From IMG/VR virus record IMGVR_UViG_3300029816_000066, positions 1 through 7,517 of that record: a stretch of 7,517 nucleotides of DNA. One strand, 5' to 3'. This stretch comes from a virus. Its lineage: Duplodnaviria > Heunggongvirae > Uroviricota > Caudoviricetes. Each line of letters opens with the position of its first letter. Position 1 is the stretch's first letter. A program made the translations under genes and the position numbers. Under the pieces are notes generated by a model. That model ran no database searches. It was given only the letters and a program-made list of their open reading frames with translations, and had not been told where the DNA came from. Shown one piece after another: positions 1,173 to 6,530 of this stretch.

Positions 1173-1916
1173 ATGACAGAGACAGAATCAGCGATTCTGG
1201 CGCATGCCCGGCGATGTGCGCCAGCGGAGTCGTGCGGCTTCGTGGTGAGAGCGCCGGAGGGGGAAAGATATTTTCCCTGCGTGAATATCTCCGGTGAGCC
1301 GGAGGCGTATTTCCGGATGGCTCCGGAGGACTGGCTGCAGGCAGAGATGCAGGGTGAGATTGTGGCGCTGGTCCACAGTCATCCCGGTGGTCTGCCCTGG
1401 CTGAGTGAGGCCGACCGGCGGCTGCAGGTGCAGAGTGATTTGCCGTGGTGGCTGGTCTGCCGGGGGGCGATTCATAAGTTCCGCTGTGTGCCGCATCTCA
1501 CCGGGCGGCGCTTTGAGCACGGGGTGACGGACTGTTACACGCTGTTCCGGGACGCTTACCATCTGGCGGGGACTGAGATGCCGGACTTTCATCGTGAGGA
1601 TGACTGGTGGCGTAACGGCCAGAATCTCTATCTTGATAATCTGGAGGCCACAGGGCTGTATCAGGTGCCGTTGTCAGCGGCGCAGCCGGGCGATGTGCTG
1701 CTGTGCTGTTTTGGTTCATCGGTGCCGAATCATGCCGCCATTTACTGTGGTGACGGCGAGCTGCTGCACCATATTCCTGAACAACTGAGTAAACGGGAGA
1801 GGTATTCCGAAAAATGGCAACGACGAACGCATTCTGTCTGGCGTCACCGCCACTGGCACGCATCTGCCTTCACGGGGATTTGCAACGATTTGGCCGCCGC
1901 CTCAGCCTGTATGTGA
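1173..1916 (+). CDS. K: Tail assembly protein K (lambda gpK-like), 247 aa; MPN/JAMM domain plus NlpC/P60 (C40 peptidase) domain
   Basis: JAMM motif H-S-H-x7-S-x2-D is present (HSHPGGLPWLSEAD) with upstream Glu candidates at aa 19 and 29. C-terminal NlpC/P60-like Cys/His residues (VTDCYTLF, VPNHAAIY, LLHH). 3' end overlaps the I gene by 103 nt in a different frame, as in lambda. Internal Met49 at nt 1317 would give 199 aa, the annotated lambda gpK length, but the long form keeps the complete domain. Confidence 0.88.
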   Translation: MTETESAILAHARRCAPAESCGFVVRAPEGERYFPCVNISGEPEAYFRMAPEDWLQAEMQGEIVALVHSHPGGLPWLSEADRRLQVQSDLPWWLVCRGAIHKFRCVPHLTGRRFEHGVTDCYTLFRDAYHLAGTEMPDFHREDDWWRNGQNLYLDNLEATGLYQVPLSAAQPGDVLLCCFGSSVPNHAAIYCGDGELLHHIPEQLSKRERYSEKWQRRTHSVWRHRHWHASAFTGICNDLAAASACM

Positions 1917-2494
1917 ACACGGCAGCGGAAGCCATCCGTGCCCTGTCGTTACAGGTGCCGGGCTTTCGCCGTCAGATGAACGAAGGCTGGTACCAGATAC
2001 GTATTGCCGGTGATGACACGGCACCGGAGGCGGTGTACGCCCGTCTTCACGAACAGCTGGGTGAGGGAACGGTCATCCACATTGTGCCGCGACTGGCCGG
2101 AGCCGGAAAGGGCGGACTGCAGATTGTGCCGGGGGCGGCAGCCATCGTGGGCTCTTTCTTCACGGCCGGTGCCTCGATGGTGTTATGGGGTACAGCCCTG
2201 AGTGCCGGCGGTTTTTCTGCCACCACGATGCTGTTTTCACTGGGGGCCAGCATGATACTGGGCGGTGTGGCCCAGATGCTGGCCCCGAAGGCAAAAACAC
2301 CGGATTACCGCGCAACGGATAACGGCAGACAGAACACGTACTTTTCCTCGCTGGATAACATGATTGCCCAGGGGAACCCGATGCCGGTGCCTTACGGGGA
2401 AATGCTGGTTGGCTCCCGCCGTATATCCCAGGACATCAGCACCCGTGATGAAGGCGGGGGCGGAAAGGTCGTGGTTATCGGGCGGCAGGGGTAA
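1814..2494 (+). CDS. I: Tail assembly protein I (lambda gpI-like), 226 aa
   Basis: Strong similarity to my recall of lambda gpI (ARICL(H/Y)GDLQRFGRR, AEAIRAL, IHIVPR, FSLGASM(I/V)LGGVAQMLAPKA, DNG(R/K)QNTYFSSLDNM(I/V)AQGN, YGEM, VVVIGR). Length 226 vs 223 aa. Start lies inside the 3' end of K, as in lambda. Confidence 0.92.
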   Translation: MATTNAFCLASPPLARICLHGDLQRFGRRLSLYVNTAAEAIRALSLQVPGFRRQMNEGWYQIRIAGDDTAPEAVYARLHEQLGEGTVIHIVPRLAGAGKGGLQIVPGAAAIVGSFFTAGASMVLWGTALSAGGFSATTMLFSLGASMILGGVAQMLAPKAKTPDYRATDNGRQNTYFSSLDNMIAQGNPMPVPYGEMLVGSRRISQDISTRDEGGGGKVVVIGRQG

Positions 2495-2540
2495 AAAGAA
2501 TAAAAAAATCCCGCAGTGATCGCGGACAGGAACTGCGGGA
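2495..2540 (-). terminator. Intrinsic terminator on the minus strand: 8-bp GC-rich stem followed by a U-tract, abutting the I stop codon
   Basis: On the minus strand, TCCCGCAG (2540-2533) pairs with CTGCGGGA (2516-2509), then TTTTTTTATTCTTTTT follows (2508-2493). The 16-nt loop is long and may form extra pairs. On the + strand the same hairpin is preceded by A-runs and has no T-tract, so it acts only leftwards. Confidence 0.6.
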
Positions 2541-2598
2541 GAGTTACGAAGATTAAGTGTAAGGAATTATTCTTATATCACGACAAAAAAATTAACGC
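2495..2598 (-). ncRNA. Candidate small non-coding RNA (~100 nt) encoded in an I-J intergenic insert, transcribed antisense to the tail operon
   Basis: Defined by the promoter at 2605-2632 and the terminator at 2495-2540, both on the minus strand. The predicted transcript (GCGUUAAUUUUUUUGUCGUGAUAUAAGAAUAAUUCCUUACACUUAAUCUUCGUAACUC-hairpin-UUUUUUU) contains no ATG; its GTG and TTG codons each hit a stop within 3 codons. AU-rich body plus 3' stem-loop and poly-U is a typical Hfq-type sRNA layout. TSS is inferred at about 2598, not measured. Confidence 0.45.
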
Positions 2599-2604
2599 AG
2601 AGAA

Positions 2605-2632
2605 ATTATACGCGCCACAGTCAGTTTGTGAA
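2605..2632 (-). promoter_or_regulatory. Sigma70-type promoter on the minus strand: -35 TTCACA, 16-nt spacer, -10 TATAAT
   Basis: Minus-strand TATAAT at 2610-2605 (6/6 to consensus) and TTCACA at 2632-2627 (5/6 to TTGACA), 16-nt spacer. An A/T-rich stretch lies directly upstream (minus-strand GCATAAAAATTCTGAATATC, 2660-2641), resembling an UP element. Confidence 0.6.
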
Positions 2633-2703
2633 AATGTGAAGATATTCAGAATTTTTATGCCATTACCGGTTTTAACCAACAGGATTATCGGTGGGCATGA
2701 AAG

Positions 2704-2740
2704 AAAACCCCGGTATCTGCTGATACCGGGGTTTCTCTTT
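2704..2740. terminator. Bidirectional intrinsic terminator-like hairpin: perfect 10-bp stem, 4-nt loop, A-run on one side and T-run on the other
   Basis: CCCCGGTATC (2708-2717), loop TGCT, GATACCGGGG (2722-2731), followed by TTTCTCTTT (2732-2740) and preceded by AAGAAAA (2701-2707). Confidence 0.7.
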
Positions 2741-2837
2741 AGCATGGCAGAAATGTGTTTCATGCTTTTCGGGCGAAGGATATCCGACTTCTGTACGGAA
2801 TGGCAAGTGGCGGTTAATTTATTCAGGGGAAGGCTGT

Positions 2838-5800
2838 ATGGGAAAAGGTGGCGGTAAGGCACACACGCCTCGTGAGGCGAAGGATAATCTCAAATCCACG
2901 CAGATGATGAGTGTGATTGATGCGATTGGTGAGGGACCGATAGAAGGTCCGGTGAAGGGACTGCAGAGTATTCTGGTGAACAAAACCCCGCTGACGGACA
3001 CGGACGGTAATCCCGTGATACACGGTGTGACTGCGGTCTGGCGTGCCGGGGAGCAGGAGCAGACACCACCGGAAGGCTTTGAGTCCTCCGGAGCTGAAAC
3101 CGGACTGGGCGTGGAAGTGACGAAGGCAAAACCGGTGACGCGCACCATTACGTCCGCGAACATTGACCGCCTGCGGGTTACCTTCGGGGTGCAGTCACTG
3201 GTGCAGACCACGTCAAAGGGCGACCGTAATCCTTCCTCTGTCCGGATTCTGATTCAGTTACAGCGTAATGGCCGCTGGGTGACGGAAAAGGATGTCACCA
3301 TTAACGGCAAGACCACCTCGCAGTTCCTGGCCTCGGTGATTCTGGATAATCTGCCTCCCCGGCCCTTTAACATCCGGATGGTCAGGGAGACGGCGGACAG
3401 CACCACGGACCAGCTGCAGAATAAGACGCTGTGGTCGTCATACACCGAAATCATCGATGTGAAACAGTGCTACCCGAACACGGCCATTGTGGGGCTGCAG
3501 GTGGATGCGGAGCAGTTCGGCGGCCAGCAGATGACGGTGAACTACCATATCCGCGGTCGCATCATCCAGGTGCCGTCAAACTATGACCCGGAAAAACGCA
3601 CGTACAGTGGTATCTGGGACGGCAGCCTGAAACCGGCATACAGCAACAACCCGGCCTGGTGTCTGTGGGACATGCTGACTCACCCGCGCTACGGCATGGG
3701 AAAACGTCTGGGGGCGGCGGATGTGGACAAGTGGGCGCTGTATGCCATCGGGCAGTACTGCGACCAGACGGTCCCGGATGGTTTCGGGGGGACCGAGCCG
3801 CGGATGACCTTTAATGCGTACCTGGCACAACAGCGTAAGGCGTGGGACGTTCTCAGTGATTTCTGCTCTGCGATGCGCTGTATGCCGGTATGGAACGGCC
3901 AGACGCTGACGTTCGTTCAGGACCGTCCGTCGGATGTGGTGTGGCCGTACACCAACAGCGATGTGGTGGTGGATGATAACGGCGTGGGTTTCCGCTACAG
4001 CTTCAGTGCCCTGAAGGACCGGCACACGGCAGTGGAGGTGAATTACACCGACCCGCAGAACGGCTGGCAGACCTCCACGGAACTGGTGGAAGACCCGGAA
4101 GCCATACTGCGCTACGGACGCAACCTGCTGAAGATGGACGCGTTCGGCTGTACCAGCCGCGGTCAGGCCCACCGTGCCGGGCTGTGGGTGATAAAGACCG
4201 AACTGCTGGAAACGCAGACGGTGGATTTCACGCTCGGGTCACAGGGGCTGCGTCACACACCCGGTGACATCATTGAAATCTGTGATAACGACTATGCCGG
4301 GACCATGACCGGCGGACGTGTCCTGTCCATCGATGCCGCCAGCCGTACCCTGACGCTGGACCGGGAGGTGACACTGCCGGAGACCGGCACGGCCACTGTT
4401 AATCTGATTAACGGCAGCGGTAAGCCGGCGAGCGTGGCCATCACCGCACACCCCGCGCCTGACCGGATACAGGTCAGCACCCTGCCGGATGGTGTGGAGA
4501 CATACGGTGTGTGGGGACTCTCCCTGCCGTCACTGCGTCGTCGCCTGTTCCGCTGTGTCTCCATTCGGGAAAACACGGACGGCACGTTCGCCATCACGGC
4601 GGTGCAGCACGTACCGGAAAAAGAAGCCATTGTGGATAACGGGGCCAGCTTTGAGCCGCAGTCAGGCAGCCTGAACAGCGTTATCCCACCGGCAGTGCAG
4701 CACCTGACGGTGGAGGTGAGTGCAGCTGACGGTCAGTATCTGGCACAGGCGAAATGGGACACGCCGCGGGTGGTGAAGGGTGTGCGCTTCAGTCTGCGTC
4801 TGACCAGCGGAAGCGGAGAAGACAGCCGTCTGGTGAGCACCGCCATCACCGCAGACACGGAGCACCGTTTCAGTGGTCTGCCGCTGGGGGAATACACCCT
4901 GACGGTGCGGGCCATTAACAGCTACGGCCAGCAGGGCGAACCTGCGACCACCACCTTCCGGATTAACGCGCCTGCAAAACCCGCCACCATTGAGCTGACG
5001 CCGGGGTATTTTCAGATAACGGCGGTCCCGCGTCTTGCGGTGTATGACCCGACGGTACAGTTTGAATTCTGGTTCTCAGAAAAACGCATCACGAACACAG
5101 CACAGGTGGAAAAATCTGCCCGTTATCTGGGGACCGGCAGTCAGTGGACTGTCCAGGGGAGCCGGATTAAGCCGGGGACGGATTTCTGGTTTTACGTGCG
5201 AAGCGTCAACCTGGTGGGAAAATCTGCTTTTGTGGAAGCCAGCGGGCAGCCCAGCAATGATGGTGAAGGGTATCTGGAAATTTTCCGGGGGCTGATAGAT
5301 GAGACGCTTCTGGGCCAGGCACTGAAAGAGCGCATTGATGCTTCAGCGCTGCGTACGGAGGTCACGCAACTGGAAGAAGACATCCGTCAGCGGATGGACA
5401 CGGATATCGCAGAAGTGACCCGGAAAATCGGGGAGGCAGAAAACAGCCTCACGCAGCTGGTTGCGAAAAAGAATGAGGACCAGACACTGGCCATCGCGCA
5501 GGTGAGCCAGAAAGTGGACCGGGTGAGCAGTGAAATCTCACAGACTGTCAGCCAGGGGCAGTCAGAAAATGCCCGACAGATAGCACAGGTCCGCCAGTAC
5601 GTGGATAAAAAAGGGAGTGAAATTACCTCGACCACGGATAAAAAACTGGGTGACCAGGCCGTGACCATACAGCAAATCCAGCGGGTTCAGTCAGACACGC
5701 GCAATGAGCTGAATGCCATGTATATGCTGAAGGTGCAGAAAACAAAAAACGGTATTCCCTATGTGGCCGGGATTGGTGCGGGGATTGAGGATGTTGATGG

Positions 5801-6530
5801 TCAGACGCTGAGCAGTATTCTGCTGCAGGCTGACCGTATCGCGATGATTACCCCGGAGAATGGCAACACCACGCCGCTGTTTGTGGCGCAGGGGAATCAG
5901 CTGTTCATGAACGACGTGTTCCTGAAGCGACTGTTTGCGGTGAGCATCACGTCATCCGGCAATCCTCCTACGTTTTCCCTGACGCCGGATGGCAGGCTGG
6001 CAGCCCGCAATGCGGATATCAGTGGAGCCATCACGGCGAATACCGGCACGCTCAATAATGTCACCATTAACGAGAACTGTGTCATCAGAGGGAAACTGTC
6101 TGCAAACCAGATTGAAGGCGATCTCGTTAAAACAGTGGGTAAGGCTTTCCCCCGTGGCTCCCGTGCACCGGAGAGGTGGCCATCAGGGACCATTACCGTC
6201 AGGGTTTATGACGATCAGCCGTTTGACCGGCAAATTGTTATTCCGGCGGTGGCATTCAGCGGTGCCAGACATGAGCGGGAGAATAACGATATTTATTCGT
6301 CATGCCGCCTGATAGTACGGAAAAACGGTGCTGAAATTTATAACCGTACCGCGCTGGATAATACGCTGGTTTACAGTGGTGTTATTGATATGCCTGCTGG
6401 TCGCGGCCACATGACGCTGGAGTTTTCTGTATCAGCATGGTGGGTAAATGGCTGGTATCCCACAGCAAGTATCAGCGATTTGCTGGTTGTTGTGATGAAG
6501 AAAGCCACTGCAGGCATCACGATTAGCTGA
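2838..6530 (+). CDS. J: Central tail fibre / host specificity protein J (lambda gpJ-like), 1230 aa
   Basis: N-terminus [22 protein letters not shown]…[15 protein letters not shown] and many later blocks ([93 protein letters not shown]…[40 protein letters not shown]) match my recall of lambda gpJ. A fibronectin-III-like segment lies at about aa 610-700. RBS GGGGAAGG sits 4 nt upstream of the ATG. Confidence 0.95.

Follow-up and report, generated by a model that had tools for sequence, protein, structure and literature searches.

The spacer between the tail genes I and J of a lambda-like E. coli prophage very probably encodes, on its minus strand, an Hfq-dependent sRNA that acts in trans by base pairing and that represents a divergent allele (herein W) of the RNA family known as PasB in EPEC and as EcOnc22-24 in EHEC. 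Judged by its end-to-end homology to two experimentally seen RNAs, with which it also shares position and orientation, the unit is a genuine self-contained non-coding sRNA moron and a relative of PasB and EcOnc22-24. A preliminary description of this DNA had proposed an antisense, self-contained RNA moron and had left open whether it belonged to a described family; the comparison bears out the proposal and supplies the family. The W allele is itself undescribed and divergent, but the element is of a known kind, its family already bearing two names.

The window, by which we mean the whole 7,517-nt stretch of DNA that was analysed (IMG/VR record IMGVR_UViG_3300029816_000066), contains the tail-tip module of the prophage with the gene order M-L-K-I and J, and a lom-like gene of the Lom family 3' of J (Table 1). 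The stop codon of I occupies 2492-2494, which leaves an I-J gap of 343 bp (2495-2837) vs 60 bp in lambda, and both lengths agree with those originally reported (343 bp and ~60 bp). The excess had been read as one AT-rich insert of ~245 bp; its AT-richness holds (GC 32-39% at 2500-2700 vs 57-67% in the flanks), whereas the single block does not, as the insert consists of two cassettes. The first of these, the sRNA cassette, spans 2495-2658 (about 164 bp) and is the only part of the spacer in common with Stx1a and Stx2c phages. The sRNA unit is absent from lambda, 434, HK630 and related phages, with spacers of 60 bp in lambda, 434 and HK630, and the unit thus displays the presence/absence polymorphism that had been anticipated for it. 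Numerous ExPEC genomes, among them CFT073, S88 and ATCC 25922, carry the whole spacer at 100% identity, and no sRNA is annotated in the I-J spacer of these three or of the other records examined. At the CFT073 locus (L157, NC_004431 1364141-1364483), the RefSeq locus tags skip from C_RS06865 (I) to C_RS06875 (J) across an unannotated spacer, a gap which suggests that a feature was perhaps once called there and later dropped.

Table 1 Features of the I-J region, with positions counted from the first nucleotide of the window.
Feature	Position	Strand	Basis
Tail assembly gene I	1814..2494	+	Pfam Lambda_tail_I (E 6.5e-16); RefSeq annotation of the identical CFT073 locus
U7 terminator tail, likely the Hfq-binding 3' end	2502..2508	-	7 nt separate its end from the I stop
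Predicted primary transcript of the W allele, about 97 nt	2502..2598	-	PasB alignment; covariance model match
Terminator hairpin, arms 2540-2532 / 2517-2509, 14-nt loop	2509..2540	-	Inverted repeat of 9 nt, 100% complementary
Single-stranded core UCCUUACACUUAAUCUUC, counterpart of the putative PasB seed UCCUUCACAUUGAUCUUC	2548..2565	-	Alignment; fold
-10 hexamer TATAAT	2605..2610	-	Promoter scan; TATAAT, AATAAT or GATAAT in 45 unique variants
-35 hexamer TTCACA, 16-nt spacer	2627..2632	-	Scan; near-invariant in terminator-retrieved loci
A/T-rich conserved region upstream of the promoter	2633..2658	-	Conservation; includes CRP-like TGTGAAGATATTCAGA
Right-hand mosaic cassette leading into the J start	2659..2837	+	Locus comparison; 13-bp hairpin
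Tail tip / host specificity gene J	2838..6530	+	ORF list; RefSeq annotation of the CFT073 locus

The anatomy of the gene could be read from the minus strand of the first cassette, where the three elements named in the preliminary description were all recovered. The promoter TTCACA-16-TATAAT with its upstream A/T tract was retrieved by our scan at 2632..2605 (-) with 11/12 consensus matches, in a window holding three promoter-like sites vs 0.9 expected from shuffles, and it is also conserved across alleles (see below). Transcription is predicted to start at 2598, 7 nt after the -10 hexamer, and the ensuing ~97-nt RNA, described earlier as roughly 100 nt without a usable ORF, indeed contains neither an AUG nor a usable ORF. 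The hairpin and U-run said to abut the I stop correspond to a 9-bp stem and U7 that end 7 nt from that stop. The scan's own terminator call was a hairpin plus T-run at 2526..2510 (-), and the 9-bp stem 2540-2532/2517-2509 was judged better; the number of terminators found in the window scan was not above shuffles. The 7-bp core of the stem (CCCGCAG/CUGCGGG) is unchanged in 15 alleles with loops of 4 to 16 nt, and no covariation support for the terminator stem was obtained across the variants because the stem never varies. The consensus fold is made up of the terminator alone, preceded by a single-stranded AU-rich 5' part; within the core of this part AUCUU is invariant across alleles and a UCCUU-like motif is kept alongside it, while the intervening positions are allele-specific.

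Immediately upstream of the -35 hexamer is a CRP-like candidate site (TGTGAAGATATTCAGA, 2635-2650) with one mismatch to TGTGA-N6-TCACA, and the stretch around it hardly varies between alleles. Its centre falls near -44.5 from the predicted start, and at a chance expectation of 0.29 matches per window it carries little weight alone; such a site would fit the reported level of PasB, which is higher in LB than in glucose-containing DMEM. The transcript also contains an 18-nt imperfect direct repeat (78% identical, 2586-2603 and 2502-2519) that is kept in all alleles, and by which the 5' end (CUGCGUUAAUUUUUU) resembles the 3' half of the terminator with its U tail (CUGCGGGAUUUUUUU). The published 5' end of PasB maps 21 nt after the -10 hexamer, directly past the internal U run, where ~7 nt would be usual, so that the start near 2598 is tentative and the published end may reflect processing. 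The 5' repeat with its internal U run could serve in processing or as an internal Hfq site.

Searches of the window against Rfam 15, at gathering as well as permissive thresholds, retrieved no relevant family, and the best matches at permissive thresholds amounted to noise of the terminator type, located on the 2705-2734 hairpin. We built a covariance model from eight non-W alleles, including E2348/69 PasB and Sakai EcOnc22, and it matched 2598..2502 (-) over the full model with 63.2 bits and an E value of 1.4e-11, the next match having an E value of 0.25. Along with this homology in sequence and structure to experimentally detected members, the W allele shows the location of the family (I-J spacer, antisense to the tail genes, 3' end adjoining the I stop) and its gene architecture, namely its own sigma-70 promoter, an intrinsic terminator with a long U tail and no ORF. 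PasB of EPEC O127:H6 E2348/69 was found by Hfq RIL-seq, confirmed by northern blot and shown to depend on Hfq for its stability, with a higher level in the non-activating (LB) condition (Pearl Mizrahi et al. 2021, PMC8550237). We placed it at NC_011601 1466343..1466261 (-), between E2348C_1436 and E2348C_1437, which are the homologues of I and J. The window aligns with this locus from the final part of I through terminator and RNA body into the promoter, the equivalent of the published 83-nt PasB being 2585..2502 (-) in the alignment, and the PasB northern probe matches the window at 2507-2526 (20/20 aligned bases).

The second set of known relatives comes from EHEC O157:H7 Sakai, in which EcOnc22, EcOnc23 and EcOnc24 were reported as three homologous RNAs of the prophages Sp15, Sp14 and Sp11, about 85 nt long on northern blots and destabilised in an hfq mutant (Tree et al. 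2014, PMC4104026); a 2021 review gave their targets as unknown. Expression, size and Hfq dependence have thus been demonstrated in two other alleles of the family, PasB and EcOnc22-24. By their listed positions, the EcOnc genes belong to the I-J spacers of these three prophages, on the strand antisense to the tail genes, and the identity of the gene was settled by the probe sequence rather than by the coordinates in the 2014 table: the EcOnc northern probe (GGGAGAGAACGATGAAGATTAAC...) is the exact reverse complement (23 nt) of the gene in all three spacers. On NC_002695.2 (L166, L167 and L168) the table coordinates lie ~120-150 nt toward J from the probe-matched gene, presumably through a shift between Sakai record versions, and they need checking before use with the current Sakai record. 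No EHEC homologue of PasB is given in the papers that describe it (PMC8550237; bioRxiv 10.64898/2026.05.13.724894), and EcOnc is never mentioned in Zhu, Shabalina and Storz 2026 (bioRxiv 10.64898/2026.05.13.724894). No paper linking PasB to EcOnc22/23/24 was found within the searchable literature, so that the link has apparently not been made before, and searches with the terminator 16-mer or for CFT073/UPEC sRNAs retrieved no paper describing the W allele.

To survey allelic variation, viral contigs were scanned twice, once seeded with the terminator and once with the promoter, yielding some 150 loci with 45 unique variants of the gene. In the loci retrieved through the terminator, the -35, the -10 and 25 nt upstream were almost invariant; in those retrieved through the promoter, the 7-bp terminator core and the U tail were invariant, and body and loop varied. 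As the conservation of either end was judged on loci chosen by the opposite one, ascertainment bias is controlled, and the conservation of promoter and terminator implies that the features seen in the window are not due to chance. Between the two ends there are several body alleles that carry indels and differ by 27-35%, with at least 10 distinct targeting cores among the 45 variants. A megablast search of 5426 complete E. coli genomes detected the W allele in 800 of them, compared with 956 for the E (PasB) type and 542 for the Sakai type, counts that may overlap; the Sakai-type gene is multi-copy in O157 genomes (median 2 copies per genome). The PasB census of Zhu et al. employed a word size of 28 and a query coverage above 75% (bioRxiv 10.64898/2026.05.13.724894), and could not have retrieved W because W has no exact 28-nt word in common with PasB, the longest shared word being 25 nt, in the terminator region.

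Beyond E. coli, a scan of one genome per species with the promoter 25-mer recovered only E. albertii and two short contigs labelled Asaia platycodi and Streptomyces flavalbus, whose E. coli prophage sequence is probably contamination. In the locus with the Asaia platycodi label (L121) and in L132, an IS3-family element sits in the promoter spacer of the sRNA, directly after TTCACAAACTGA; from its end (TGAACCGCCCCGGGAATCC...), we take the inserted element to be IS629-like.

Pairwise comparison set the W allele apart from PasB in its body rather than in its ends. The two share the I-J locus, the antisense orientation, the 3' end at the I stop and the promoter, and they are of similar length, with an identical 7-bp terminator core plus U7 and with UCCUU and AUCUU conserved. 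However, the W and PasB transcripts are 73% identical as a whole and 65% identical in the body, with indels and a larger terminator loop in W, and the right-hand spacer cassette is unlike that of the PasB locus (intergenic region of 343 bp in the window vs 240 bp in E2348/69). EcOnc22-24 of Sakai constitute a third allele, which has the same I-J position, orientation, terminator stem and U7 as the window but a -35 region and a body (AACUCCAUAACGUUAAUCUUCAUCG) unlike it.

The consequences for targeting were assessed on eight of the strongest PasB RIL-seq partners from the non-activating condition, using the chimera regions. The scan counted exact complementary runs with a shuffle control; unrestricted RNAduplex gave meaningless full-length duplexes. 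Perfect complementarity of 9-11 nt to PasB was present in four of the eight target regions, and for three of them it fell within UCCUUCACAUUGA, with 11 nt in the napF 5'UTR, 11 nt at the fabR/yijD junction (17 nt upstream of the yijD start) and 9 nt in the start region of caiF. Two partners, yhhX and E2348C_2648, match the adjacent AAAACAAC(U); hflX and map also belong to the EPEC partners of PasB. Runs of at least 9 nt in at least three of the eight targets were obtained with 2.3% of PasB-body shuffles, and these eight targets thus point, at moderate significance, to a putative PasB seed in UCCUUCACAUUGA. Zhu et al. placed the seed nearer the terminator (bioRxiv 10.64898/2026.05.13.724894), and the single-base difference that defines their PasB-2 (position 27) lies inside the UCCUUCACAUUGA stretch.

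At the target-complementary stretch of PasB, W differs in 5/17 positions and reads UCCUUACACUUAA, and it offers only 6-8 nt of complementarity to the same eight targets, which is background; W therefore seems not to share the seed, and hence the targets, of E2348/69 PasB. As its complementarity to the PasB targets is at background, W is probably not functionally equivalent to PasB and would be a member of the family by descent, with targets that probably differ from those of E2348/69 PasB. Within the window itself, the only trans complementarity of the sRNA was a 9-nt background match.

The remainder of the spacer has a history of its own. Positions 2741-2837 had been taken for conserved spacer in the preliminary description, whereas they form part of the interchangeable right-hand cassette of 179 bp and only the hairpin is common with lambda. 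At least three alternative cassettes, unrelated or diverged, occupy the right half of the I-J spacer (L001, L005, L009 and others), measuring 87, 86 and 189 nt between the promoter anchor and the start of J. The window-type cassette occurs with either W or E sRNA alleles, and this independent assortment of cassettes and sRNA alleles indicates a recombination break near 2655-2660. The hairpin in the window is a perfect one of 13 bp (2705-2717 with 2722-2734, 4-nt loop) with T-rich runs on both strands, and fold z-scores around it range from -3.8 to -6.3 (context 2680-2780). A strong hairpin with a T-rich run on the late-gene strand precedes J in every cassette type, including the E2348/69 spacer; the 60-bp spacer of lambda also has a hairpin and T-run (AAACCGCCTGCGGGCGGTTTTGTCATTT), and one 434 record annotates a terminator. 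In one locus (L049) the hairpin was lost precisely, through a 47-nt deletion between AGAAA repeats. In an operon that is antiterminated by Q, the pre-J hairpin may protect J against read-through in the lysogen or, alternatively, shield the sRNA promoter.

Set against other known systems, the unit has the properties of a moron: its own promoter and terminator, a place between conserved late genes, absence from lambda/434/HK630 and an atypical composition. Morons of lambdoid phages (Juhala et al. 2000) are autonomous promoter-gene-terminator units between late genes, which the window unit resembles; it is unlike classic morons in that its cargo is RNA and not protein and that it is convergent with the late operon. 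The anti-sRNAs AgvB and AsxR are, like the window unit, prophage-borne, Hfq-binding and moron-like, with conserved 3' and variable targeting parts, but they are RNAs of 51-60 nt that lie downstream of Q/PR' and serve as decoys of GcvB and FnrS. Identity with AgvB or AsxR was rejected because those RNAs are encoded at the PR' site and the window unit at I-J, and because neither RF02702 nor RF02703 matched. An antisense RNA of a type I toxin-antitoxin system was also rejected, since neither strand has a conserved ORF, indels break the frame and no Pfam match was found.

The proposed action of a trans-acting sRNA encoded in this position begins in the lysogen, with initiation by the sigma-70 RNA polymerase of the host at TTCACA-16-TATAAT. 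The polymerase would transcribe ~97 nt against the silent late operon, stopping at the CCCGCAG/CUGCGGG hairpin and U7; expression of W, like its seed, is predicted here from its kinship with the two alleles seen experimentally. The product would comprise an unstructured AU-rich 5' part of ~60 nt, with the anti-Shine-Dalgarno-like UCCUU and the invariant AUCUU, and a 3' terminator/U-tail module that appears to be of the type bound by Hfq. Together with Hfq, the single-stranded core could pair over short segments with host and island mRNAs, frequently close to the start codon, and the pairing would alter the translation or stability of these mRNAs, in the same mode as PasB but with a different set of mRNAs expected.

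The same RNA could instead act in cis, pairing with the late I-J mRNA and tuning J in lytic growth through RNase III cleavage or convergent-transcription interference, in the way that lambda OOP RNA acts on cII. All alleles indeed keep one position and orientation, within the late operon and convergent with I, full complementarity to the I-J part of the late polycistronic mRNA is inherent, and every cassette type places a structured hairpin between J and the sRNA promoter. We nonetheless regard a cis role as rather unlikely, given that the RNA overlaps neither the coding region of I (3' end 2502, stop 2494) nor the ribosome-binding site of J (about 2825-2837), and that the E allele has many trans partners on Hfq in RIL-seq data. 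Moreover, PasB and EcOnc22 were detected in ordinary cultures, induction being unmentioned, in which the late mRNA should be absent. A trans role could also exist beside one in cis.

It seems very improbable that the RNA is a sponge or anti-sRNA in the manner of AgvB and AsxR, with other sRNAs as its main partners. Such a role would be in line with a prophage-encoded, Hfq-binding RNA that has constant ends and a variable targeting part, as anti-sRNAs do, and with the one PasB RIL-seq partner that lies in the pasA region; yet 30 of the 37 RIL-seq interactions of PasB are with a CDS or 5'UTR, which was the criterion for a regulator sRNA (PMC8550237), the gene lies at I-J and not at the PR' moron site, and AgvB and AsxR found no match among the Rfam results. 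Finally, the spacer might be non-functional mosaic DNA with fortuitous motifs or might code for a small protein (ORF 2516-2857 (+) or 2578-2862 (-)), given that mechanical ORFs span it, that one phage record annotates a hypothetical protein there and that the terminator count does not exceed that of shuffles. We consider this extremely unlikely and largely refuted: the spacer ORFs have no Pfam match, the RNA strand lacks an AUG, both frames are disrupted in natural variants by indels (1, 2, 5 and 47 nt), promoter and terminator are kept across alleles that are 27-35% different in between, and two alleles yield discrete Hfq-dependent RNAs.

As a divergent member of the PasB/EcOnc22-24 family, the W allele is carried by the model uropathogen CFT073 and is common in ExPEC, and because it differs in the very stretch that matches the RIL-seq partners of PasB, results from EPEC PasB should not be transferred to ExPEC without testing. 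The family as a whole is some two- to threefold more widespread than one would conclude from the BLAST-based census (800, 956 and 542 genomes, with overlap possible). Two literatures, on EcOnc22/23/24 (2014) and on PasB (2021, 2026), are herein tied together, and a covariance model of the whole family, for which Rfam 15 holds no counterpart, would mend the annotation gap. The pattern of constant promoter and terminator, swappable cores and recombining right-hand cassettes could equally well prove right or wrong as a sign that the lambdoid I-J spacer is a hot spot for a multi-allelic sRNA cassette, through which EPEC, EHEC and ExPEC each wire different host genes. If this is true, about 15% of complete E. 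coli genomes would harbour, in W, a regulator as yet uncharacterised.
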